Of a DNA stretch of 64,000 nucleotides, positions 9,993-54,644 are shown one piece after another; position 1 is the stretch's first letter; each line of letters opens with the position of its first letter. The stretch lies in the NCBI GenBank assembly GCA_000092065.1, contig CP000586.1. One strand, 5' to 3'. Source of the stretch: Ostreococcus lucimarinus. Its lineage: Eukaryota. The translations under genes were made by a program, and so were the position numbers. Below the pieces are notes generated by a model. That model ran no database searches, was not told the origin of the DNA, and saw nothing but the letters and a program-made list of their open reading frames with translations.

Positions 9993-10153
9993 GGTGTAAA
10001 CGCCGCAGCGCGCGGACGCGCGCGGACCAGAGAATGAGGGCTCGATCGAAGCATCTTGCGCGCGGAGACTAGGGGTACGTCGGAGATTGTACAACCGCGA
10101 ATGTATATTAAGAGCGTGCGGATACTTGCGTGCTACTGCTGATGCTAGAAAGG

Positions 10154-13100
10154 TTAAATATTTGCGTCGGGCGCAGACGCAGCCGCGCGGGCTCGCCGCG
10201 CGCGGAATCGACGCTGAAGTTTTAAGACGACGAGCATGACGCTCATGGAAATTGGCTTGCCGTCGAGATCAAACAATTCGTTCTCGTCGCCTTCTTCTGC
10301 GATTTCCATCTCGCGAATGGACGCAAAAGAGTCCCCGCGAAGTTCATCGGCGGCTTGTTCTTTGCGAGAAAGTTCTCTGACGAGAGTCGCTCTTCGACGG
10401 ACTTTGTTTCGAAGTCTCAAGAGAGAAGCCCGTTTGGCGTTTCTCCGATCCTCCTCGAGTTCGCGGCGAATTTCGAGCGGGAGGTAGTTGAGATCCACAC
10501 CCATAGCCTTGGCCGTAAAAGCCTGCAAGAGCTCGGTGTAATGAAGAAACCTCGACCCTCCTTGTAGATTGAGCGATCGAACGTGGTTGAGCATGCCCAA
10601 GTCAGTGACGCGCTTGCCCTTCAAACCCAATGGTTTTGGCGTGGCGAGAATGATGGCCTTTACGTCGATCGCGCTGACGAAACCGGTGAGATCTGGGTCG
10701 AACTTTTTCCAAACTCTGCGGAAAGCCTTGACGTCTTCAGGAGTCACGTTCTCATTCTCAGCTTCCTTTCTACTCATCGAATAGTTATCGAGCACGACAG
10801 CGATGAGTAAGTTGAGAATAATGAACGAAGAGAAAGCGACAAAGCTGACAAAGTAAACTGGAGCGACGGCGGTGCCGCAACACGTCCCGATGGCGCAATC
10901 GAAAGAAGCGTCGCAGTTTTTCTTGTTCATGCAATCATTCATGATCTCTTGCCACCCCTCGCCGGTCAACATCCGCAAAAGCGTGGAGAGGGAATTTCCA
11001 AAAGTTTTGAAGTTTGCGTGCCTATTGAGCGCTTCGCCATACGCGAGACGCCCGAAGACTTGTGTGCCTAATATGGCGTATATAAAAAACAGCAGCGCCA
11101 ACAACAGAGATATGTTGCCGAGCGCAGGAATTGTCATCACCAGCGTCTGGAACAACGTGTTCAATGATTTCCACTTTTTCACCATACGGAAAACTCTGCA
11201 GATGCGCAGAGCGCGGAACGCGCTAGATCCCGTTCCCGACTGCAAAATTGCACCCAAGATGGACGTTACGACGATGATAAAGTCGAACACATTCCAACCG
11301 GATGAAAAGTAACGTCGCGGGTACAGCGCGCCAATTTTCATCATCGCTTCAACTGCAAACGCAGCCGTGAAGATGTAGTTCAACACATCCAATGCAAACT
11401 TCTTTGAGGAGCTGTCGTGATCCGTCTCCGTCATGAGCACCACGGTGTTAATGAAGATGATAACCATGATGCTCGCATCAAATCTTGTGTCGTTGATCAA
11501 TTGGAAGAGCTTTGCGCGCCACTTTTGATGAGGCGGTCTTCTGAAAAATGATTGTCGAGCGGTGAAGTTCCTGTTGCGCTGCTGAGCAACCCACCTTGCC
11601 TGTGACTCGCTCATAATGGTGCGCGTCAGCGACGTCGTCGATATCTTCAAAAAGTTGTCGATGACGATACCGATGCACATATTGAACAAGAAGAAGTTCG
11701 ACAGAACGATAAAAATGAGGAAATACCACGTCGCGACTGGAGTACGATCTCGCACGGGCGCCACATCCGTGCCCACGGCGTCAGCTGCGTTGAACATAGT
11801 CACTGTCCACCCTTCGCCAGACGTCGTCTCAAACAACGTGAGCATTGCTCGTGGGAAAGAGTCAAAGTTGCTGTCAGCACTCTCCCAATCTCGAGTGACA
11901 TAAACCGCAGATGTGTAGCTGCCAGTGCATGCAGATTCGGTCGTTTTGGTGTAGTCGTTGCACGAAGACGTTATGACATCCCAAGTCCGCACACTCGTGC
12001 CGTTTGACCAAGAATCGACGCACGCCGATTTAGTGAGAATCGTGGGATCGGAGCAACTTTTAAACTTACCCATGAACAACGACATTCCTGCGATAGCAAA
12101 TATGATCCACACAATCAACGATACCAGAAGCACGTACACGAGACTCGGAAGCGATGCAATGAGCGCGTTGATTACCACTTTTAACCCTTGTACTCGCCCG
12201 AGAAGTCGAAGCGGTCGCAAAACGCGCAAAGTACGTAACGCACGAACCCATTTAAGATCCGCGCTGGATCCGAGACCCATACCGAGCAATCCGAAAAACA
12301 CGATAGTGCCATCGAGAACGTTCCACGGGTTCTTCAAGTACGAGTACTTATCGGCGTTGAACATGCCTAACGCGATCCACTTCATCAACAACTCCACCAC
12401 AAATGCAGAAGTGAAACAGTAATCAAGAATTTCTGCTCTCTCCTCAAAGTTTGGATTGTCCATATTCTCTGGCGTCTCCCAACACATGGTTATACTCGAG
12501 GCAATGATCAACATAAGAATGAACCAGTCAAATCGCCTGTCGTCCGCGATCGCGAAGCACGCTTTACGGACTGGGTGCGATGGCTTGAACAATCCAAAAA
12601 AGCTGCTTTGTTCAAACTTAGTGAGCGGAACTTTACTAAGCGCCCCTGGCTGCTTCTTCTGCATGTCCTTCGGACTCATAATGACGCTGGTTGTCTCAGC
12701 GCTACTTTCTTCCTCAATCATCTTTCTGGCTCGCTGCAATCTCAAATTTTCAACTTTAGCCGCTGCTTTTCTCTTCTCTCTCTTCAGCAATTCGTGGGCA
12801 AAATGTGCAAATCTCGTCGCAGTTTGGGATGGCTCATTATTTGCGCTATCATTCGACTCACGACTACGGACACTGTCCGATTTAGTCATTCGCATCCCAG
12901 CAAACACGCCAAAGATACTTTGTTTCTTCGCAGCCCTACTCTCTTGCAGTTGCTCTTGCAGGACTTCTTTGCGATTGTCAAAGTTGCTCAGCAAGATGGC
13001 GATGAGCGAGTTGAGAATGATAAAGTCGCCCAGAATGAGGACGACCACGAAATACAGAAGAGCGACTTTCGCGGTGGTGAACATGGTGTCATACATCACT

Positions 13101-15511
13101 AATGGCCAATCCTCGTGCGTGATGACTTGCACGACAGTAATAATAGCGTTGTTGAAGGTGTCAAAGTTCGACCGCGGCTTTGGGTCAATCTTACAGTAAT
13201 TGCCGCCAAAAAGTTGCATCCCGACGAGCGCAAAAATCAAAACAAATAGACACAAAATCGCTAGAAAACTCGATAAATCGACCAGAGTCTTCCAAATTGT
13301 TTTAAGCGTGCTCTGTAGAGACTGCCACGTTCGCATCAACTTGAGGATTCGGAAAACTCGGAGCGCGCGAAGGACGGTGAATTTTGACTTGCCTTCACCT
13401 CCATTCAAGCCGAGTTCAATACAAGACACGAGCACAATCCCCGCATCCAACCAATTCATGCGATCACGCACGTACTCAGGTATACCAAGCGCTACGACTT
13501 TAATCAATAATTCAAACATGAAAATCGCAGTAAACGCCAGATTCGCGTTTTCCAGCGCCTCTGAGTAACTGTTAGACATGCCGTCGTATTCCATCGCGAG
13601 CACGAGTGTGTTCAACAAAATACTGAAGTTGATGACCATGAAGAAAAAATCACCATCCACGAACTTCCGCGCACGTGGTTGTACGAAGTTCTTTATTCTG
13701 ACGAGTTGCGTTTTGATCCACTCGAGAGTTTGACTGCGTTTGTGGCGCACGACGGACGCGCTCATTGCTTCTCCTAACCCGTCATTCGTGGCACTTTCTG
13801 AGCGTGATAGCGCCTGGATAGCTCTTTCGAAGGTGGAGAAGCTCCCACTCGAGACTCTTTGCAACTCATCCATAATATTCGCGTCGTAAACCATGGTGAT
13901 GATGGCGAGTGCCAAGTTCAATATCACGAACGATCCAAAAAATATCACGGGCAGGAACCACATCACGACCGCAGGCGATACTGAATCTATGAGGTCTAAC
14001 ATCACGGGCGACCAATACTCGAGGGTTATCGTCTGGAAGATCACGAGCCAAGACCACCAGACGCTATCGAAACTCGCGTATCCATAGTTTGGATTTTCGT
14101 GATCTAAACACTCTTGGCCGCTGGGGCACTGCCACGCGGCTTGGGCGGTGGTTCCACATGCTTGATCTTCGTTCTTTTTCAGCAAAACTGCGTCACCAGA
14201 AGCGCGTTTGATGCATCGTACGTATTCTTGCGCCGTGTAACTCTCGCACGGCACGCTTGGCGGAAGTACATCGAAGCACCGTGTTCTCATCTTTCCGGCA
14301 AAGAACTGCACGCCAATGATACCGAAAATGCAGAAGAATAGCAAAAAGAATACAATCACGTTCGCAAGAAGTGGTAGAGACTTCAACATTGTCTCGATCA
14401 GCAATCGAAGCGATGGGAACATGCTAATCGTTCGCAGCGGACGCAGAATTCGCACTGTTCTTAAGGTGGACACGTTTGACCCCATATCGCCTGGCAGGAG
14501 GGCGACGACGGACACGATGACAATGCCAAAGTCCATCACGTTCCACGAGTCGCGTAAATACGCCCCCGAGTTTTTTGTATTCAATTTACCCACCACACCG
14601 AACGCTATCATCTTCAGCAACGCCTCGAGGGTGAATAAAATAGTGAACGTGAGTTCGCTCCGCTCCGCCGCGTCGTTCCTCGCCCCTCGCGTGGCAAACT
14701 GCCCGCACCCTCTACCCTCCAAGCGCTCGGGTTCGCTGAGGCACAGCAAAATCGTATTCGCAGCGATAATCAGCAGTACGATCCAATCAAACTCGTGTCT
14801 CTCGACGAGCTGAATGCAAAACTTGCGAATCGGGTTCTCCGCCCCGAACACCCCGAACGACTTTTCAGCGTAAATCTTCCCACTCACTCCCACGACTAAG
14901 CTATCCTCGCCCTCGATCGACGCATTTCCCGACGCTGACTCTTGCCTCGCCGCACTCACGTTCGCACTTCGTTCTTTCCCACTCTTCGTGTGTTCGCCCA
15001 AGCGATGATAAATGTCCACCAATTGTTCGCCTCGTTCGTCTCGCTCGCCGTCGTCGTCGCTTGAGTGGGAATCTCTCGCCCCGTCCCGATCGATGCCGTA
15101 ATACGATCCATCATCACCATCACCCTCATCGTCGGAATCGTCGCTCGAGCACGGCGCCGGTCCCGCGCGCGTCGCCGCTCCCGCGCGCCGCGTTTCGTCC
15201 TCCGTCTCGCGCTCGCCGCTCGAATTCCCATCGCTCGAATCCGCGCTCCCGTGTCGCATCACCAGCTCCGCGAACGCGACGGACGACAGCGACGCCCCCC
15301 CGCTCGCGCGTCTTCGTCCCTCGCGCGCGTTTTGCGACGCATCGCGCGCGACGAACGCACCGATCGTCCCCGCGCGTCGTGCCTCCGAATTCGCGTTCGC
15401 GTCGTCGTCGTCTTCATCGCGCGCCCTCGCGCCGCCGCGCGCGTCGCGCCGCCGCGTCGGCGCGTCGCCGGAGTCCGACTCCACGCCCCACCGGCTCGGC
15501 GCCATCGGCAT
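10154..15511 (-). CDS. Four-domain voltage-gated cation channel, Cav-like (EEEE selectivity filter)
   Basis: Four repeats of S1-S6 with R/K-spaced S4 segments (e.g. VRALRTLRVLRPLRLL). The pore loops are TLEYW, THEDW, SGEGW and TGEGW, each with a Glu at the selectivity position. There is a C-terminal IQ-like LKLQRRFRARRAR. The ORF-track start at 15646 is GTG. The first ATGs are at 15511 and 15505, so the start is uncertain. Confidence 0.9.
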   Translation of the reverse strand: MPMAPSRWGVESDSGDAPTRRRDARGGARARDEDDDDANANSEARRAGTIGAFVARDASQNAREGRRRASGGASLSSVAFAELVMRHGSADSSDGNSSGERETEDETRRAGAATRAGPAPCSSDDSDDEGDGDDGSYYGIDRDGARDSHSSDDDGERDERGEQLVDIYHRLGEHTKSGKERSANVSAARQESASGNASIEGEDSLVVGVSGKIYAEKSFGVFGAENPIRKFCIQLVERHEFDWIVLLIIAANTILLCLSEPERLEGRGCGQFATRGARNDAAERSELTFTILFTLEALLKMIAFGVVGKLNTKNSGAYLRDSWNVMDFGIVIVSVVALLPGDMGSNVSTLRTVRILRPLRTISMFPSLRLLIETMLKSLPLLANVIVFFLLFFCIFGIIGVQFFAGKMRTRCFDVLPPSVPCESYTAQEYVRCIKRASGDAVLLKKNEDQACGTTAQAAWQCPSGQECLDHENPNYGYASFDSVWWSWLVIFQTITLEYWSPVMLDLIDSVSPAVVMWFLPVIFFGSFVILNLALAIITMVYDANIMDELQRVSSGSFSTFERAIQALSRSESATNDGLGEAMSASVVRHKRSQTLEWIKTQLVRIKNFVQPRARKFVDGDFFFMVINFSILLNTLVLAMEYDGMSNSYSEALENANLAFTAIFMFELLIKVVALGIPEYVRDRMNWLDAGIVLVSCIELGLNGGEGKSKFTVLRALRVFRILKLMRTWQSLQSTLKTIWKTLVDLSSFLAILCLFVLIFALVGMQLFGGNYCKIDPKPRSNFDTFNNAIITVVQVITHEDWPLVMYDTMFTTAKVALLYFVVVLILGDFIILNSLIAILLSNFDNRKEVLQEQLQESRAAKKQSIFGVFAGMRMTKSDSVRSRESNDSANNEPSQTATRFAHFAHELLKREKRKAAAKVENLRLQRARKMIEEESSAETTSVIMSPKDMQKKQPGALSKVPLTKFEQSSFFGLFKPSHPVRKACFAIADDRRFDWFILMLIIASSITMCWETPENMDNPNFEERAEILDYCFTSAFVVELLMKWIALGMFNADKYSYLKNPWNVLDGTIVFFGLLGMGLGSSADLKWVRALRTLRVLRPLRLLGRVQGLKVVINALIASLPSLVYVLLVSLIVWIIFAIAGMSLFMGKFKSCSDPTILTKSACVDSWSNGTSVRTWDVITSSCNDYTKTTESACTGSYTSAVYVTRDWESADSNFDSFPRAMLTLFETTSGEGWTVTMFNAADAVGTDVAPVRDRTPVATWYFLIFIVLSNFFLFNMCIGIVIDNFLKISTTSLTRTIMSESQARWVAQQRNRNFTARQSFFRRPPHQKWRAKLFQLINDTRFDASIMVIIFINTVVLMTETDHDSSSKKFALDVLNYIFTAAFAVEAMMKIGALYPRRYFSSGWNVFDFIIVVTSILGAILQSGTGSSAFRALRICRVFRMVKKWKSLNTLFQTLVMTIPALGNISLLLALLFFIYAILGTQVFGRLAYGEALNRHANFKTFGNSLSTLLRMLTGEGWQEIMNDCMNKKNCDASFDCAIGTCCGTAVAPVYFVSFVAFSSFIILNLLIAVVLDNYSMSRKEAENENVTPEDVKAFRRVWKKFDPDLTGFVSAIDVKAIILATPKPLGLKGKRVTDLGMLNHVRSLNLQGGSRFLHYTELLQAFTAKAMGVDLNYLPLEIRRELEEDRRNAKRASLLRLRNKVRRRATLVRELSRKEQAADELRGDSFASIREMEIAEEGDENELFDLDGKPISMSVMLVVLKLQRRFRARRARAAASAPDANI

Positions 15512-37056: not shown

Positions 37057-37128
37057 TGCTGAATAGGAGGTTCGAACTCCTGATCGCCTCCTTACTAAAG
37101 AGGCGCCTTACCACTTGGCCAATTCAGC
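37057..37128 (-). tRNA. trnT-AGU: tRNA-Thr (anticodon AGU)
   Basis: Minus-strand 72-nt cloverleaf. Acceptor GCTGAAT/ATTCAGC (7 bp), D-arm GCC-AAGTGGTAA-GGC, anticodon stem CCTCT/GGAGG, loop TTAGTAA (anticodon AGT), T-arm AGGAG-TTCGAAC-CTCCT, discriminator A. Confidence 0.8.
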
Positions 37129-48428: not shown

Positions 48429-50969
48429 TCACCAGTTGAATTGTAACTCGTGCGTACCCTCGGTGGCGCCTAGATCGATCGAGAGCGCGCCGGTGCGCGG
48501 GTCGAAATCGGGCGAGACGGCTCGCCCGTCGACGTGGACGGATGTCGGCGCCCGCGAGGCGTAACACGCGAGCTCGCCGAGACCGTACGCGGTCACGTTT
48601 GCGGATCTTCCGTTCATGTCTATGCGTAATATGGATCCTCCACCGTTGTACATCGCGGTCAGACCTATGGCGGCGAATTTGATGTCGCCTTGCTCGAGGA
48701 GTTCGGCGATGGTGTAAATTTCCCAATCCTTGTGCATGAGCATGATGGACGTGCACTCCTTCAAGCGCAGGATTTCAATGCGCCGGTTGCGATGGGAACG
48801 GACCACAAACGATGCACCCTGCGTCGATCGATCGGCGATACCTTCAACGTCTCGTGGACACAGTTCCGCGAGCGTGGCGGAGATTGGTTTCGGCAGACTC
48901 GCGAACTGATTCGTGGCGCGCGACCACGAGGCGCCTTGAATGTTGAACACGCCGATCACTGAGTTCACAAAGTTGCGGTTCCACACCTTGAGCGCCGTTC
49001 GACCATCGCGAGTGACGTCTCTGAACAGGCAATCGCGGGTTGGACGACCCGCCTGGCGGCATCGAAGTACTCTACCGGATGGGAACACGAGCTGATGGAG
49101 AATCTCAAAGTCGTGCTTACCCGGATGATCGCTCACGTACACCGGACACCCACCGATCGCGCGCGTCGCGGCGTGTAATGCACCGGCTACGTGCTGACTC
49201 TGAAACATGTCCCAATCGGGCAACACAATCTCGCCCATGAAGATGGAGTTGTACACCACGTTGGCGATGTGCACCGTGTGGCTCGCTTCGTTCGCCGGGT
49301 AAAAGTCGTCGCTCGCTCTCGCCAACGCGCTCGACTTGAAGTTATAAATGTTCTCCGTGGAGTGACACATACAGTTGATGATGCCATTATCGGGGAAATG
49401 CGCCCGCACGGACTCTTCCAACGCCGCGTGCACGCGCCTGGCAAATGCGGGACCGCCGCCGTTTTTGTACCCCAACGCGCCGATGACGGCTTGCGCGTCC
49501 ACCTTGACGCCATCAACGTCCGACGCGGAGAGATAATCGTGCGTGACGACGTAAAAGTGCGCCAAAGTATCGGGACTAGGCACTCCGACCCCGCCCACGG
49601 TGAGCGGATCCCACGCCTGGGACGGTTCCACGGTCAACACTCCCGGCGTATGCTTGGGATACTTCATCACCGATCCGTACTTCGCTACGTTTTCCTCATC
49701 CGGATGAATACCACCCCAATACCCGAGCAACGCGTGCCAACAGTACACGTACTCCACCCCAAACTCGGTCTTGATCTTACGAACCACTTTAGCGAGCCCA
49801 TCCACGGACTCGGCTTCGGGAAGAAGGTCCAACTGCGACGGTCGCGCGCTCGCGCCTGCTAATTTTCTACGGAAAAATTTTGGCAGTACGCGCTGGGATA
49901 AAGTCCTCGACATCCCGCTACCGATGACGTGCAGCTTTTGAAACTTGTGATTCGCCTTGACGGCGTACACGCGATGATTAAAGTGACTCATGCTCGACAC
50001 CACCACCTTGACGGTGTGATAAAAGACGTAATTCATCAACAGCCTAAAAATGTGCCACGTGAGGGATCGAAAACGACTGGCGTGCAAGCGGCTCCAGTAA
50101 AACGACGCCGCCATCGCCGCCAACACGCCGGGCGGCGGCGAGGCCGACGTCGTCGGTGGAGGCACGACCACCGCGTTCGAGTCGGGAACCGTCTTATCCT
50201 TCTTGCTCACCTTGCGATAACTCTTATCCGGCAGCACGCTCTGCCAACCGTCGTCGATGATCACGAATCGCGCCGGCGCCCCACCGTCCCGCAGCGTCTG
50301 CACGCCTTGTTCGATCCCATCCGGCGTGACGTCGGTATAAAACGCATCCCACGTGCACCACCCGAACACGTCCACCGTCTCCGGCAACTTTTTATCCTCC
50401 AGCAACTCAAACGTTCCCAACATCGTCCGCGTCTCCGCCATCGCTCGTCGAATCGCCTCGTACGGCGATTTCGCGCACGCCATCACCATCACGTTATCCA
50501 CCTCGATCGCGTTCTCCTCCTCGCAGTTACTTTCAACGATCATCCACACCTCTCCCTTCGCGTTTCCCTCCAGCGTCGTTCGAAAGTGCGCCCCGCTCGT
50601 CGGCAGCGCGCACGCGTACCCCGCGCCGTCGCCCAGTTCCATGAGCGCGAACTGCGTCTCCGCTCGCACGTCCTCGCCTCCGTGTCCCCACGTCGGCGTC
50701 ATCCACCACAGTTTACACCGCGCGCTCGCCACGAACGCCGTCGCGCACATCTCTCCGCACAGCTTGACGCGGTGTCGCGACCGCGCGCGATCGGCGCGCA
50801 GGTGAAACGCGACGCAGTCGCCGAGTCCGTCGACTTCGTCGCGCGCGCGCGTCCCGCGACGCGCGCTCGCGCCCGCGCGCGCGCACGCGACGTGCGGGCC
50901 GAGCTCGCGGAACACGTCGACGTCGCCGTCGACGACCGCGACGGCGTCACCGCGGACGTCGACGCGCAT
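48429..50969 (-). CDS. Raffinose synthase / galactinol-sucrose galactosyltransferase family (GH36)
   Basis: FRCKLWWMTPTWG, FGWCTWDAFY, VKVDAQ..., FMGEIVLPDWDMFQS are typical of the raffinose/stachyose synthase family. I chose the ATG at 50969 (MRVDVRGD). The ORF extension to 51227 is R-rich. Confidence 0.85.
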   Translation of the reverse strand: MRVDVRGDAVAVVDGDVDVFRELGPHVACARAGASARRGTRARDEVDGLGDCVAFHLRADRARSRHRVKLCGEMCATAFVASARCKLWWMTPTWGHGGEDVRAETQFALMELGDGAGYACALPTSGAHFRTTLEGNAKGEVWMIVESNCEEENAIEVDNVMVMACAKSPYEAIRRAMAETRTMLGTFELLEDKKLPETVDVFGWCTWDAFYTDVTPDGIEQGVQTLRDGGAPARFVIIDDGWQSVLPDKSYRKVSKKDKTVPDSNAVVVPPPTTSASPPPGVLAAMAASFYWSRLHASRFRSLTWHIFRLLMNYVFYHTVKVVVSSMSHFNHRVYAVKANHKFQKLHVIGSGMSRTLSQRVLPKFFRRKLAGASARPSQLDLLPEAESVDGLAKVVRKIKTEFGVEYVYCWHALLGYWGGIHPDEENVAKYGSVMKYPKHTPGVLTVEPSQAWDPLTVGGVGVPSPDTLAHFYVVTHDYLSASDVDGVKVDAQAVIGALGYKNGGGPAFARRVHAALEESVRAHFPDNGIINCMCHSTENIYNFKSSALARASDDFYPANEASHTVHIANVVYNSIFMGEIVLPDWDMFQSQHVAGALHAATRAIGGCPVYVSDHPGKHDFEILHQLVFPSGRVLRCRQAGRPTRDCLFRDVTRDGRTALKVWNRNFVNSVIGVFNIQGASWSRATNQFASLPKPISATLAELCPRDVEGIADRSTQGASFVVRSHRNRRIEILRLKECTSIMLMHKDWEIYTIAELLEQGDIKFAAIGLTAMYNGGGSILRIDMNGRSANVTAYGLGELACYASRAPTSVHVDGRAVSPDFDPRTGALSIDLGATEGTHELQFNW

Positions 50970-51225
50970 GGCGCGAGCGCGCGCGCGCGAGTGACGCGTC
51001 GTTCTCGGCGTCGGCGCGTCGCGCGAGTCCGCGATTCGGAACACCGCGACGACGGTCCGTCGGTCGCCGATCGACGCGCGCGCCCGCGTCGTCGCGCGCG
51101 CGTCGGCGGGCGCGCGACGACGCGCGGCGCGCGCGCGCGACGAAACGCGGCACGCGCGGACGCGACGACGCCGAGAACGACGCGCGACGACGCGCGACGA
51201 CGACGACGCGAAAAAACGCGACGAC

Positions 51226-51846
51226 ATGCTCGAGCGACTGCAGCGCGAGCTCGACGCGGCGGAGCGGCGGTTGGCGAGCGAACGGCGCGCGGAGGAGGCG
51301 AGCGCGGCGCGATTGGCCGAGACGACGCGAGACGTCGAGCGACGGCGGATCGAGCGCGACGACGCGAAGGCGGCGCGGGACGAGGCGATGGCGGCGCTGG
51401 CGGAAGCGCGCGAGGAGCTCGACGCGCTGGAACGGGCGAAACGCGCGGAGGACGAGGCGATGGTGGAGGTGATGAAGATGATGGACGAGCGACGCGCGCG
51501 CGACGACGACGCGCGACGCCGACGACTCGACGAGACGAGAGCGGCGATCGAGTTCGAGTTCGACGCGCGCGCGATGATGAGAGAGCATCGAACGTCGCTG
51601 GAACTTTCGGATGAGATCTACGAGCGCTCGAAGGGGCTCGAGGGCGTCGGGCCGTGGCGGGACTTTGATCTCGGCGACGTCCCGGACGATTTGGTCGAGA
51701 CGATCGCGCGCGTCGTCGACGCGCGACGAGAGAACGACGCCATTCGCGACGAGTTGCTCGCCAAGGGCGCCGACGCCAACTACGCCGCGTTTAGAGACGA
51801 GCTCGAGCGCATGCGCGCGAGCGATCGTCCGGGGTCTGACGTCTGA
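51226..51846 (+). CDS. Hypothetical coiled-coil protein
   Basis: 206 aa with ATG at 51226. E/R/A-rich heptad-like sequence, no family recognised. Its first 40 codons lie opposite the rejected R-rich N-terminal extension (50970..51227) of the raffinose synthase ORF rather than its chosen CDS. Confidence 0.3.
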   Translation: MLERLQRELDAAERRLASERRAEEASAARLAETTRDVERRRIERDDAKAARDEAMAALAEAREELDALERAKRAEDEAMVEVMKMMDERRARDDDARRRRLDETRAAIEFEFDARAMMREHRTSLELSDEIYERSKGLEGVGPWRDFDLGDVPDDLVETIARVVDARRENDAIRDELLAKGADANYAAFRDELERMRASDRPGSDV

Positions 51847-51949
51847 GACGATTCTTTGTAAACTCGGCGCCGGTGCCCGCATCGCTCGCGCTCGGCGCCT
51901 CGATCGCCCCATTCCGTCGCGCCGTTCCGTCGCGCGCGCGCGCGCGGAC

Positions 51950-52546
51950 ATGGACGTCCACTTCGTCTACGTTTTAGAGTGCGAGCACGACGCGTACTAC
52001 GTCGGCGTCGCGAGATCCGTCGCCGAGCATCGCGCCGGCGTCGGATCGACGTGGACCCGAATCCATCCACCGCGTCGCGTCGCGCGCGAAATCGCGTTCG
52101 CGTCGCGCGCGAGCGCGCTGGAGGGCGAGGACGTCGAGCTGAAACGGATGATGCTGCGCCACGGCGTCGATGCGGTCCGCGGCGGGAGTTACGTGTGCCC
52201 GAATCTGACTCGGGAGCAACGCGCGGCGTTGGACGGCGAAATCGCGCATCGCGAGGGGCGGTGCCTGCGATGCGGGAGACGAACGCACGTCGCGAGGGAT
52301 TGTTTCGCGCGCGCGCACGTGAATGGGTACGCGCTGAGCGCGCCGGAGGGATCGAGATCGCCGAATAGAGATGGACGATCGGCGGTGCGCAGGTGCGCGC
52401 GGTGCGGACGGGCGAGTCACTCGGCGCCGTCGTGTTTCGCGAAGTTTGACATCGACGGAGAACGCCTTTTTTGGGGCGAGCGGCGATCGAACGCGGAGTC
52501 GTCGTCGTCGGAGTACGAGAGCGCGGAAGAGACGTTCATGATGTAG
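51950..52546 (+). CDS. GIY-YIG (SLX1/YhbQ-like URI domain) nuclease with two CCHC zinc knuckles
   Basis: MDVHFVYVLECEHDAYYVGVARSVAEHRAGVGSTWTR...RVAREI...VRGGSY resembles the COG2827/SLX1-type GIY-YIG domain. Two CX2CX4HX4C knuckles follow (CLRCGRRTHVARDC, CARCGRASHSAPSC). ATG at 51950. Confidence 0.55.
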   Translation: MDVHFVYVLECEHDAYYVGVARSVAEHRAGVGSTWTRIHPPRRVAREIAFASRASALEGEDVELKRMMLRHGVDAVRGGSYVCPNLTREQRAALDGEIAHREGRCLRCGRRTHVARDCFARAHVNGYALSAPEGSRSPNRDGRSAVRRCARCGRASHSAPSCFAKFDIDGERLFWGERRSNAESSSSEYESAEETFMM

Positions 52547-52734: not shown

Positions 52735-53999
52735 TCAATCGCGCGCGTCCAGCTTGTAATCATCGGATCCGTCGGATCCGTCCGATCCATCGGCTTCGTG
52801 CTTCACGCCGGCGTCCGATCTGGCGCCGCCGTGCGTCTGCGTCGACGTCGGGTGGGCGTTGTTGGTCATGAAACCGCTCATACCCACCATCGGTGGGGCA
52901 TTTTGAGCGCCCATGTATCCCATCGCCGCTGCCTGCATGATCGACGCAAAATACGGACCAAACTGTTCGGGCGTGCCGTACGGCATCGCGTACGGGCCTG
53001 GATTCGCGAGCTTGGCCGTCGGAATCTGTCTGCCTCCTAAAGACGAAAACGCGCTCTTCTTAGCGTCGTTCGCCTCAGCTAAATCTTTACTAGCTGCTAA
53101 ACTGTCTCCGCCAGCACCCTTAGAATCATCAACCGGGCTATCTTTACCCTTCGTCCTCTTGCTATTGACCGCGGGCGCGCTCGGCTCGGCGGCGCCATCC
53201 GTGGATGTCGCCGCGCTCATGGCGTTTGCGTTTTGTCGCCACATGTTGGTCAAAAAGTTGATGTAGTTAATGAACTGCTGGGGATTACTCATTTGAGGAG
53301 GATTCTGCGCTCCAGCTGCGGGGTTCGACATGCCCACGTACGGATTCATCATGTGCTGAACCGGAAACAATCCCGGCTGCGCAAACATGCCGGCGCCCGG
53401 AGGTACGCCAAAGTAACCCGCGCGCAAATCGTGCTGCAAGCTCGTTTGCATTTTATCTGAAGCCACGGATAACACAGCCGCGACCGCCGCAGAGGAGGAT
53501 GCGTTAGCGATGTGTTCGGCTTGAGTCGCCGACCCCATCATATTTTGCGCCGTCCCAGTGCTCTTCCCCTCTCCGCTTCCGCCGCTCGGTTGCTGGCTCG
53601 TCGCCTTCTTCGGGTACGGGTGGTCGGGCTTCTTCTTCGGACGCGCCGGCGGGATCTTCAGGTTCAAATCCGGCGAAACGCTCCTTCTACTCTTCTTACT
53701 TCCAGAAGTCGAACCACGGGCACCGCGCCGTTTGCTCGAGTCGCCTTGCGACCCCGCCGGGGCGTCGCTTCCGCTCGCCGAACCTCGCGCGGCTTGTTCT
53801 TTTTGCAACTTGGAAAAAAACTTTTGCGCGTGCGACCGAATCTGGACCGCCGTCTTCGTCCCGATGTGTTCCTCAATCTTCCTCCACGCCCTCCCGTACT
53901 TTTTCAACGATTCAACGAACAACGCGTGCTCCTCATCGCTCCACTTTTCCCGTTTCTTCGTAATCGTATACGGCTTGCGCACCTTCACCGGCGCGCCCT

Positions 54000-54038
<39 letters not shown>

Positions 54039-54150
54039 GGTAGCTCATCGCCGTCTGCGCCTCACCCCGCTTTCTTCCATCGTGCTGCGCGCTCTCATCG
54101 TTCCCCGCGTCACCACCATCACCCGTCGTCTTCGACCCCGACCCGCTCAT
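52735..54150 (-). CDS. MYB-related transcription factor, CCA1/LHY/RVE (SHAQKYF-class) type
   Basis: Single MYB/SANT repeat KVRKPYTITKKREKWSDEEHALFVESLKKYGRAWRKIEEHIGTKTAVQIRSHAQKFFSKL, a poly-Thr tract from (ACG)n, and a Q/P/G/M-rich C-terminus. I chose the ATG at 54150 (MSGSGSK). Confidence 0.8.
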
Positions 54151-54644
54151 CGCGCGCGCGTCGCGTCGGTCCCCCGTGCCCTGCCTCGGAATCGCCCCGC
54201 GGACAATCACCCCCCGCGCGTTCGCGCGCGACCGTCGCACCCTACCGATGACGCGACGATCGCGACGCGCGTAAACTCAACCGAACCCTCGCACGCGCTT
54301 CTTCGCGCGAATCGCGTCGCCGCGTCCCTCGCGCGCGCGCGTCGACGCCCCGACGAATCACCCCGTCGCGCGTCGCGCGAATCGAATCGCGCGTCGCGCG
54401 CGCTCGCCCGCGCGTCGCGTCGCCTCGCCCGCGCGCGCGTATCGACGCGCGTAAATCAACGCGCGCGCGTCCCGCGCGCGCTCGCCGAGCCTCGCGTCGC
54501 CGCGCGCGTCGCGTCGTCGCGTCTTTCGCCGCCGCGCGCGCGCTTTTTCGCGTCGAAAAAGCGACGCGCGTCGACGACCCTAAACCGTCGCCGCTTTTTC
54601 GTGCTTTTTCGCTTTTTCTCGTGTTCAACGCGTTTTAACCCCAT

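Follow-up and report, generated by a model that had tools for sequence, protein, structure and literature searches.

What does a small protein that joins a nuclease domain to two retroviral-looking zinc knuckles do in the chromosome of an alga, and where does its gene come from? The question is raised by a gene on contig CP000586.1 (assembly GCA_000092065.1) of Ostreococcus lucimarinus CCE9901, of which a stretch of 64,000 nucleotides, herein called the window, was analyzed. The gene lies at 51950–52546 on the plus strand and encodes 198 amino acids that comprise a GIY-YIG nuclease domain followed by two CCHC zinc knuckles. The answer favored in this article, to which a probability of about 0.6 is assigned, is that of a resident gene with putative giant-virus-type ancestry, whose product would act as a knuckle-guided nickase and whose 198-residue allele is probably catalytically impaired. 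Beyond a preliminary description of the same DNA, the analysis adds how large the family is and that viruses are its home, that the gene order is conserved, and that the catalytic arginine has been deleted.

Identity and Boundaries of the Gene

The coding sequence first described is present and yields exactly the protein that was quoted from it. By exact-sequence look-up, this product is XP_001418231.1 (ABO96524.1, UniProt A4RYW2), which carries the labels "predicted protein," "predicted GIY-YIG superfamily endonuclease" (JGI), and "CCHC-type domain-containing protein" (UniProt). The gene is real and has already been annotated automatically; its family is unstudied. Independent assemblies encode the identical 198-residue product. 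Only 103 bp lie between the end of the upstream gene (51226–51846, plus strand) and the ATG, and only 188 bp between the stop codon and the convergent downstream gene (52735–54240, minus strand); therefore, no space is left for extra exons. Together with the equal boundaries in the orthologues and in the NCBI model, these gaps rule out a larger spliced gene with a RING exon, and the protein stands alone, as had been supposed, rather than being one exon of an SLX1-like gene.

A longer N terminus was also considered, starting from an in-frame open reading frame (ORF) at 51611, and was rejected because it would run into the upstream gene and because its start lacks conservation. Directly 5′ of the start codon lies an alternating (CG)n run (about 51932–51947), which is kept in the contig of the intact allele described below. 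The PHROGs, PADLOC, and NCBIfam libraries, which cover phage, defense, and bacterial families, gave no meaningful match for the protein.

Architecture of the Protein

The protein is built from two modules, a GIY-YIG domain and a pair of knuckles, that are joined by a helix. By sequence comparison, the GIY-YIG domain is real despite the sub-threshold score of its Pfam profile. PF01541 reaches only E = 0.19 and 12.5 bits on the 198-residue sequence alone, under the cut-off of 22.6, so that a plain profile check fails for this allele. The domain is recovered by phmmer, which matches the UPF0213 protein BH0048 (1zg2) at E = 6.8e-7 over residues 4–82, and by a profile of 37 family members, which finds BH0048 at E = 1.1e-12 and EF2693 (1ywl) at E = 1.2e-10. 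Among the relatives, PF01541 is found at E ≤ 0.01 in 27 of 29 N-terminal domains, and the orthologue from an Ostreococcus-like lineage (P0005) scores 40.6 bits. The fold is that of a three-stranded sheet with flanking helices. It contains the tyrosines and the glycine typical of the superfamily (Y7 being conserved in at least 90% of sequences, Y17 and G19 being invariant) as well as the predicted metal-binding glutamate E60. Invariant in the alignment of 37 family sequences are Y17, G19, H27, E60, M68, G72, V76, R77, G78, C105, C108, and H113.

In sequence, UPF0213/YhbQ rather than SLX1 proper is closest to the domain. Of the solved structures, that of a UPF0213 protein matches best, which agrees with the SLX1/YhbQ-type nuclease named in the preliminary description. 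Shared with BH0048 and EF2693 are the motifs Y-x-G, R-x3-H, and G-x-G-x2-(Y/W)-T-R. The UPF0213 proteins, however, are stand-alone bacterial domains of about 100 residues, without knuckles and without the E-x14-N-V-R-G-G-S-Y end, whereas the protein described here is eukaryotic, 198 residues long, and equipped with two knuckles.

The connector helix is well modeled by AlphaFold2 (AF2), with predicted local distance difference test (pLDDT) scores of about 86–90 over residues 88–102 and about 88–93 across the link to knuckle 1. It leads to the knuckles, which both match the pattern CX2CX4HX4C exactly and are retroviral-like, as had been noted, and which can be refined to the extended betaretroviral distal-knuckle type. 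Pfam zf-CCHC_5 (PF14787) matches at E = 7e-28 with 96.5 bits against a cut-off of 27, in two stretches with all eight ligands present, and the generic zf-CCHC model reaches only E = 0.81. Knuckle 1 is covered over model positions 1–36 of 36; herein C105, C108, and H113 are invariant, and C118 is conserved in at least 90% of sequences. Knuckle 2 (CARCGRASHSAPSCFAKFDIDGERL) aligns residue by residue with the HERV-K Gag knuckle (8c9m) and the MPMV nucleocapsid (NC; 1cl4), including its tail KFDIDGERL, as found in the NC of HERV-K and MPMV. The extended pattern C-x2-C-x4-H-x4-C-x3-(F/T)-(D/H)-x2-G-x2-L is common to both knuckles of the protein and to the betaretroviral NC knuckles of MPMV, HERV-K, and MMTV (1dsv). 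Unlike in betaretroviral NC, there is no Gag context with capsid or matrix domains, and the knuckles are fused to a nuclease. Both the linker of about 15 residues between the knuckles and the acidic, Ser-rich tail are modeled with low confidence. No RING/PHD finger is matched by Pfam in the protein, in line with what was first stated; the two CCHC knuckles take its place.

Family Size and Occurrence in Giant Viruses

The GIY-YIG/CCHC family is very large, with most of its members in giant viruses (Nucleocytoviricota) and scattered cellular ones. All 46 first-pass homologues combine a GIY-YIG domain with one to four knuckles following it, and they include proteins of the chytrid Entophlyctis helioformis and of Rhizophagus clarus. 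A profile of the N-terminal domain, searched against 1.84 billion cluster representatives at 50% identity, found 15,481 representatives at E ≤ 1e-3 and 6,868 at E ≤ 1e-10, many of them with tandem domains; a second search gave at least 5,772 proteins at E ≤ 1e-10. In IMG/VR, at least 501 loci were confirmed, many from giant-virus metagenome-assembled genomes. The counts of viral architectures and flanks given in the following refer to 80 of these loci. The commonest layout is that of one GIY-YIG domain with two knuckles (62 of 87 viral ORFs), and the viral ORFs are 30–37% identical to the Ostreococcus protein over residues 6–177.

The same relationship is seen with Foldseek, which compared the protein with viral structure predictions at E values of about 1e-11 to 1e-15 (best matches 1e-13 to 1e-15). 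Matches come from Marseillevirus LCMAC202, Klosneuvirus, Terrestrivirus, Orpheovirus ("GIY-YIG nuclease with Zinc finger domain"), Edafosvirus, Hokovirus, and Fadolivirus, and four Yasminevirus proteins are among the top 14. The proteins of Orpheovirus (A0A2I2L4G4), Klosneuvirus (A0A1V0SKB8), Marseillevirus LCMAC202 (A0A481YWZ4), and Yasminevirus have the architecture of the window protein, meaning one GIY-YIG domain with VRGGSY, a connector helix, and one to three extended CCHC knuckles. Domain order, VRGGSY motif, and full-length similarity all place the Ostreococcus protein among the giant-virus GIY-YIG/CCHC proteins, a group to which database annotators had already given the label of a GIY-YIG nuclease with zinc finger. 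The genes differ in their setting: those of giant viruses are rich in AT, frequently occur as several copies in one genome, and have variable neighbors, whereas the Ostreococcus copy is single, has kept its neighbors, and is host-like in composition. The domesticated mobile-element endonuclease that was proposed earlier is a plausible idea, with GIY-YIG/CCHC genes of giant viruses, and not Penelope-like elements, as the relatives.

The nearest homologue outside Ostreococcus (P0006, 38% identity) lies beside a tandem paralogue with extra knuckles (P0011; both in L089:10001-11923). Its 190-kb metagenome contig has densely packed genes that mostly lack a Pfam match and looks like a GC-rich giant virus, an assignment that is putative. 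The genes around the viral loci show no conservation, and the largest flank cluster comprises 11 of 80 loci, which is weak evidence given the diversity of these viruses. This commonest flank family is a T5orf172-type nuclease related to GIY-YIG, a hint that giant-virus genomes may contain nuclease genes in clusters.

Deletion of the Catalytic Arginine

The catalytic site of the 198-residue allele deviates from that of its family. An arginine equivalent to R27 of I-TevI is needed for catalysis in I-TevI, UvrC, SLX1, and Eco29kI. Positions 25–46 of the family profile align without gaps to residues 13–34 of I-TevI and thereby place the conserved Y, G, R, and H on Y17, G19, R27, and H31; the intact allele even shares the residue numbers of I-TevI for these four. 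The arginine precedes the histidine by four residues in 36 of 37 family sequences, the sole exception being the window protein. It alone lacks four residues in helix α1 in the alignment, and Ser23 now occupies the position of the arginine. Where the intact 202-residue alleles read GVARSVPDRVAEH, the window reads GVARSVAEH (Table 1). The motif string YYVGVARSVAEHRAG given in the preliminary description conceals this deletion.

The deletion is natural. An assembly error is ruled out by its presence in four aligned independent assemblies of 99.7–100% identity, three of which differ from the window by 3–7 mismatches over about 3.2 kb, and the exact 198-residue protein was found on 15 contigs. Most members of its 90% cluster are 202 residues long, and intact alleles outnumber the deletion among the members listed. 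An exchange S22R as a compensating change was discarded, given that most intact alleles already carry R22.

Structurally, about one turn of helix α1 is lost. AlphaFold models the helix of the 202-residue allele over residues 24–32 (nine residues, block pLDDT 98, mean 85.5) and that of the 198-residue allele over residues 25–29 (five residues, block pLDDT 77, mean 79.4). The score for PF01541 drops from 23.4 bits, which passes the cut-off, to 12.5 bits. With the catalytic arginine and a turn of α1 deleted, the 198-residue copy is therefore probably impaired in cutting, while the knuckles are retained. A strong impairment of the nuclease is rated as rather likely, and the CCE9901 allele is probably a binding-competent but cutting-deficient form.

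Table 1 Features of the nuclease gene, with positions counted from the first nucleotide of the window and residues numbered as in the 198-residue protein
Feature	Position	Strand	Residues	Remarks
Complete single-exon coding sequence	51950..52546	+	198 codons + stop	ORF and translation; boundaries identical in independent assemblies
GIY-YIG nuclease domain	51950..52204	+	1–85	"FVY" Y7, "YYVG" Y17/G19, H27, E60, V76-R77-G78-G79-S80-Y81 (family-specific)
Junction of natural 12-nt in-frame deletion	52018..52022	+		ccc gat cgc gtc, between CGTC repeats; P-D-R-V lost; DNA alignment with intact allele
E60 codon, predicted metal-binding Glu	52127..52129	+	60	I-TevI E75 equivalent; invariant column, aligned to BH0048 Glu
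VRGGSY motif, subfamily signature	52175..52192	+	after position 75	V76, R77, G78 invariant; G79, S80 at least 90% conserved
Connector helix, nuclease domain to knuckle 1	52211..52255	+	88–102	AF2 model; same helix in intact-allele model
Zinc knuckle 1 with C-terminal extension	52250..52357	+	101–136	Core C105-x2-C108-x4-H113-x4-C118, nt 52262–52303
Zinc knuckle 2 with extension	52385..52480	+	146–177	Core C149-x2-C152-x4-H157-x4-C162, nt 52394–52435; second zf-CCHC_5 stretch
Ser/Glu-rich tail	52481..52543	+	178–198	pLDDT 45–60; conserved among close Ostreococcus alleles only

A Resident Gene at a Conserved Locus

The nuclease gene belongs to the resident nuclear genes of the host, is present as a single copy, and evolves under moderate constraint; it is neither mobile at present nor embedded in a larger block of integrated viral DNA. 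The gene order raffinose synthase (−), coiled-coil protein (+), nuclease (+), and Myb (−) is common to three Ostreococcus-like lineages. It recurs in a relative that is 94% identical in DNA (L092) and in the lineage of P0005, in which protein identity is 50% and synonymous divergence (dS) about 1. The copy is fixed at one chromosomal site since before the divergence of these lineages. No second copy was found within the window, and none of the 46 homologues is a further O. lucimarinus protein. Multiple copies, which had been named as the sign of mobility, are thus not observed; with a single copy and kept neighbors, the gene is not mobile now.

Its composition (GC 0.66, GC at third codon positions 0.79) matches that of the adjacent genes. 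For the whole gene, the ratio of nonsynonymous to synonymous substitutions (dN/dS) is 0.43–0.62, with a lower value of about 0.35 for the nuclease domain and for knuckle 1. Its surroundings in the window contain neither introns nor inteins nor repeat structures. As first observed, no reverse transcriptase lies beside it; the neighbors are ordinary host genes encoding a raffinose synthase, a CUX1_N-like coiled-coil protein, and a Myb protein. The orthologue P0004 on the contig of 94% identity (L092:6001-6603) lacks the histidine of knuckle 2 and has a frameshifted tail. This decay was set aside as probably a long-read indel artifact, the contig showing 137 gap openings in 9.3 kb against the window.

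Several observations concern the neighbors and the window at large. The upstream coiled-coil protein (206 residues) matches Pfam CUX1_N ("CUX1-like N-terminal tRNA-binding arm") at E = 1e-7, and its gene adjoins the nuclease gene in all three Ostreococcus-like lineages. The downstream gene matches Myb_DNA-binding at E = 1.7e-12, contains a SHAQKFF-type motif and a run of 11 Thr near its N terminus, and encodes a single-Myb protein that we take to resemble the CCA1/LHY-type clock Myb of Ostreococcus. The raffinose synthase (48429–51227, minus strand) was given 932 residues by a mechanical ORF call, compared with 844–855 in related contigs; therefore, its true start is probably internal. Within the 64 kb, a tRNA-Thr (AGT) at 37057–37128 on the minus strand was the sole RNA gene to be detected, and the GC content falls to 0.47–0.52 at 10001–14000 compared with a mean of 0.61 for the window.

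Proposed Mode of Action

The protein combines a GIY-YIG domain of the UPF0213/SLX1-like branch, a helix, and two extended CCHC knuckles of the betaretroviral NC type, which together would form a small cutting device. The knuckles may grip unpaired bases of single-stranded DNA or RNA in the manner of retroviral nucleocapsid and other CCHC proteins. The single GIY-YIG site, consisting of Tyr7, Tyr17, the arginine, the histidine, and a Glu-bound metal, would then nick nearby, as in I-TevI, UvrC, and SLX1. The family would herein represent a small nickase with single strands or DNA structures as its targets. Its multiple copies in giant viruses could have a role in replication and recombination, or they could be selfish. 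A part in nucleic-acid repair, which the preliminary description offered as one alternative, is a putative role.

GIY-YIG nucleases that are equipped with an accessory module for zinc binding are well known, as in I-TevI, SLX1, the virophage GIY-YIG/Zn-ribbon proteins, and the plant ET factors. The systems differ in the details. I-TevI is intron-encoded and achieves site specificity via a long linker, a zinc finger, and a helix-turn-helix, whereas the Ostreococcus gene has neither an intron nor signs of homing. The GIY-YIG/Zn-ribbon fusions of virophages and polintons (Mavirus MV06, OLV1) follow the same design principle, and virophages share the giant-virus setting; plant ET factors, in which GIY-YIG is combined with zinc-binding ET repeats, follow it as well. 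The C2H2 Zn-ribbon of the virophages and the ET repeats of plants differ from CCHC knuckles, and the likeness meant here is one of design. The 2006 classification of the superfamily lists fusions to RING, MutS, ankyrin/LEM, and other domains and no fusion to CCHC (Dunin-Horkawicz et al. 2006). In the literature, no paper was found that pairs GIY-YIG with CCHC or zinc knuckles as a family, and zf-CCHC_5 appeared only in papers on retroviruses. An O. tauri "GIY-YIG nuclease" (ostta16g00515), which is induced with repair genes under iron limitation, could not be linked to the window gene.

Weighing the Explanations

Several points weigh against a resident nickase of giant-virus-type ancestry with an impaired reference allele. 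Substrate and activity are ascribed by analogy for every member of the family. R22 lies one residue from the vacated position of the arginine and R77 is invariant, and either could partly rescue catalysis. Position 75 is Ala in the window protein, where most members have Asn ("NVRGG"), the residue typical of non-SLX1 GIY-YIG enzymes. A dN/dS of 0.4–0.6 is relaxed for a core repair gene, and that of knuckle 2 is about 0.9, albeit from a small sample with few sites. In a neighbor-joining tree, the Ostreococcus sequences group with one another and fall outside the main viral group sampled; viral ancestry is thus not demonstrated. This tree is rough, with no bootstrap support and a viral sample biased to one subfamily; as a guide to the direction of transfer between virus and host, it was dismissed as uninformative.

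Among the other explanations, one is that RNA rather than DNA is the target, with the knuckles binding RNA like retroviral nucleocapsid and the GIY-YIG domain cutting it. HIGLE, a plant homologue of SLX1, reportedly cuts RNA, and the knuckles match the RNA-binding type of retroviral NC, Lin28, and TUT4/7. Furthermore, SLX1-like domains have been found fused to an RNA methyltransferase (Dunin-Horkawicz et al. 2006). Nearly all characterized GIY-YIG enzymes, however, cut DNA, CCHC knuckles also bind single-stranded DNA, and no RNA-processing neighbors or partners are evident. An RNA target is considered unlikely.

Equally improbable is that the gene is a decaying, effectively neutral relic, for instance, of an old viral gene transfer, with the deletion of the arginine as a step of pseudogenization. 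Such decay would account for a reference allele that lacks the arginine and that occurs in several wild assemblies, for the relaxed dN/dS including the value in knuckle 2, and for the homologue search, in which O. tauri, Micromonas, and Bathycoccus were not represented by any named orthologue. It is difficult to reconcile with an ORF that stays intact at one locus across lineages with a dS of about 1 and with the lower dN/dS of the nuclease domain and knuckle 1, which is about 0.35. Every other orthologue retains all catalytic residues and both knuckles, and most environmental alleles are of the intact 202-residue form.

An active selfish endonuclease gene in Ostreococcus, either of the homing type or free-standing and mobile, is largely refuted and very unlikely. 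The behavior of the viral relatives speaks for it, as they are multi-copy within single giant-virus genomes (the four Yasminevirus proteins being an example) and differ in flanking genes between loci; GIY-YIG genes of chloroviruses are, moreover, known as mobile elements. The Ostreococcus gene itself shows the opposite: only one copy, both in the window and among the annotated proteins, the same neighbors in three lineages, host-like composition, and surroundings free of introns, inteins, and repeats.

Still less credible is an SLX1 orthologue, i.e., the catalytic subunit of an Ostreococcus SLX1-SLX4 complex in which knuckles have replaced the RING. The motifs R-x3-H and G-x-G-x2-(Y/W)-T are indeed common to the SLX1/UPF0213 branch. 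SLX1, however, works with SLX4 and carries a C-terminal RING/PHD finger where the window protein has its two knuckles. The similarity of the family to SLX1 is marginal (E = 0.15), that to bacterial UPF0213 being about eleven orders of magnitude stronger, and its distribution is viral and patchy rather than pan-eukaryotic. In addition, most family members carry the C-terminal Asn that is absent from the SLX1 cluster by definition (Dunin-Horkawicz et al. 2006).

The endonuclease domain of a Penelope-like element that has lost its reverse transcriptase is practically negligible as an explanation: it shares only the general GIY-YIG fold, and although green-lineage Penelope-like elements with GIY-YIG domains are known, no reverse transcriptase lies in the same or an adjacent ORF, the neighbors are ordinary host genes, the closest relatives are UPF0213 and giant-virus proteins, and the architecture is common to hundreds of viral genes without a reverse transcriptase.

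Significance

The combination of GIY-YIG with extended betaretrovirus-type CCHC knuckles constitutes one of the larger uncharacterized gene families of giant viruses, with a few cellular genomes also taking part in it. Given the genetic tractability of Ostreococcus, the single, stably placed copy of this alga offers a clean route to the function of the family. The natural deletion of the arginine supplies a ready-made pair of an active and an inactive allele. It also cautions against taking the CCE9901 sequence as representative of GIY-YIG/CCHC proteins.

A bolder and doubtful idea is that Ostreococcus has co-opted a giant-virus-type nuclease of which active (202-residue) and dead (198-residue) alleles occur in the wild, the locus taking part in the interaction with prasinoviruses or other DNA parasites. 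If true, this would be a eukaryotic antiviral or virus-susceptibility polymorphism in a nuclease that reads single-stranded nucleic acid by knuckles of the betaretrovirus type.

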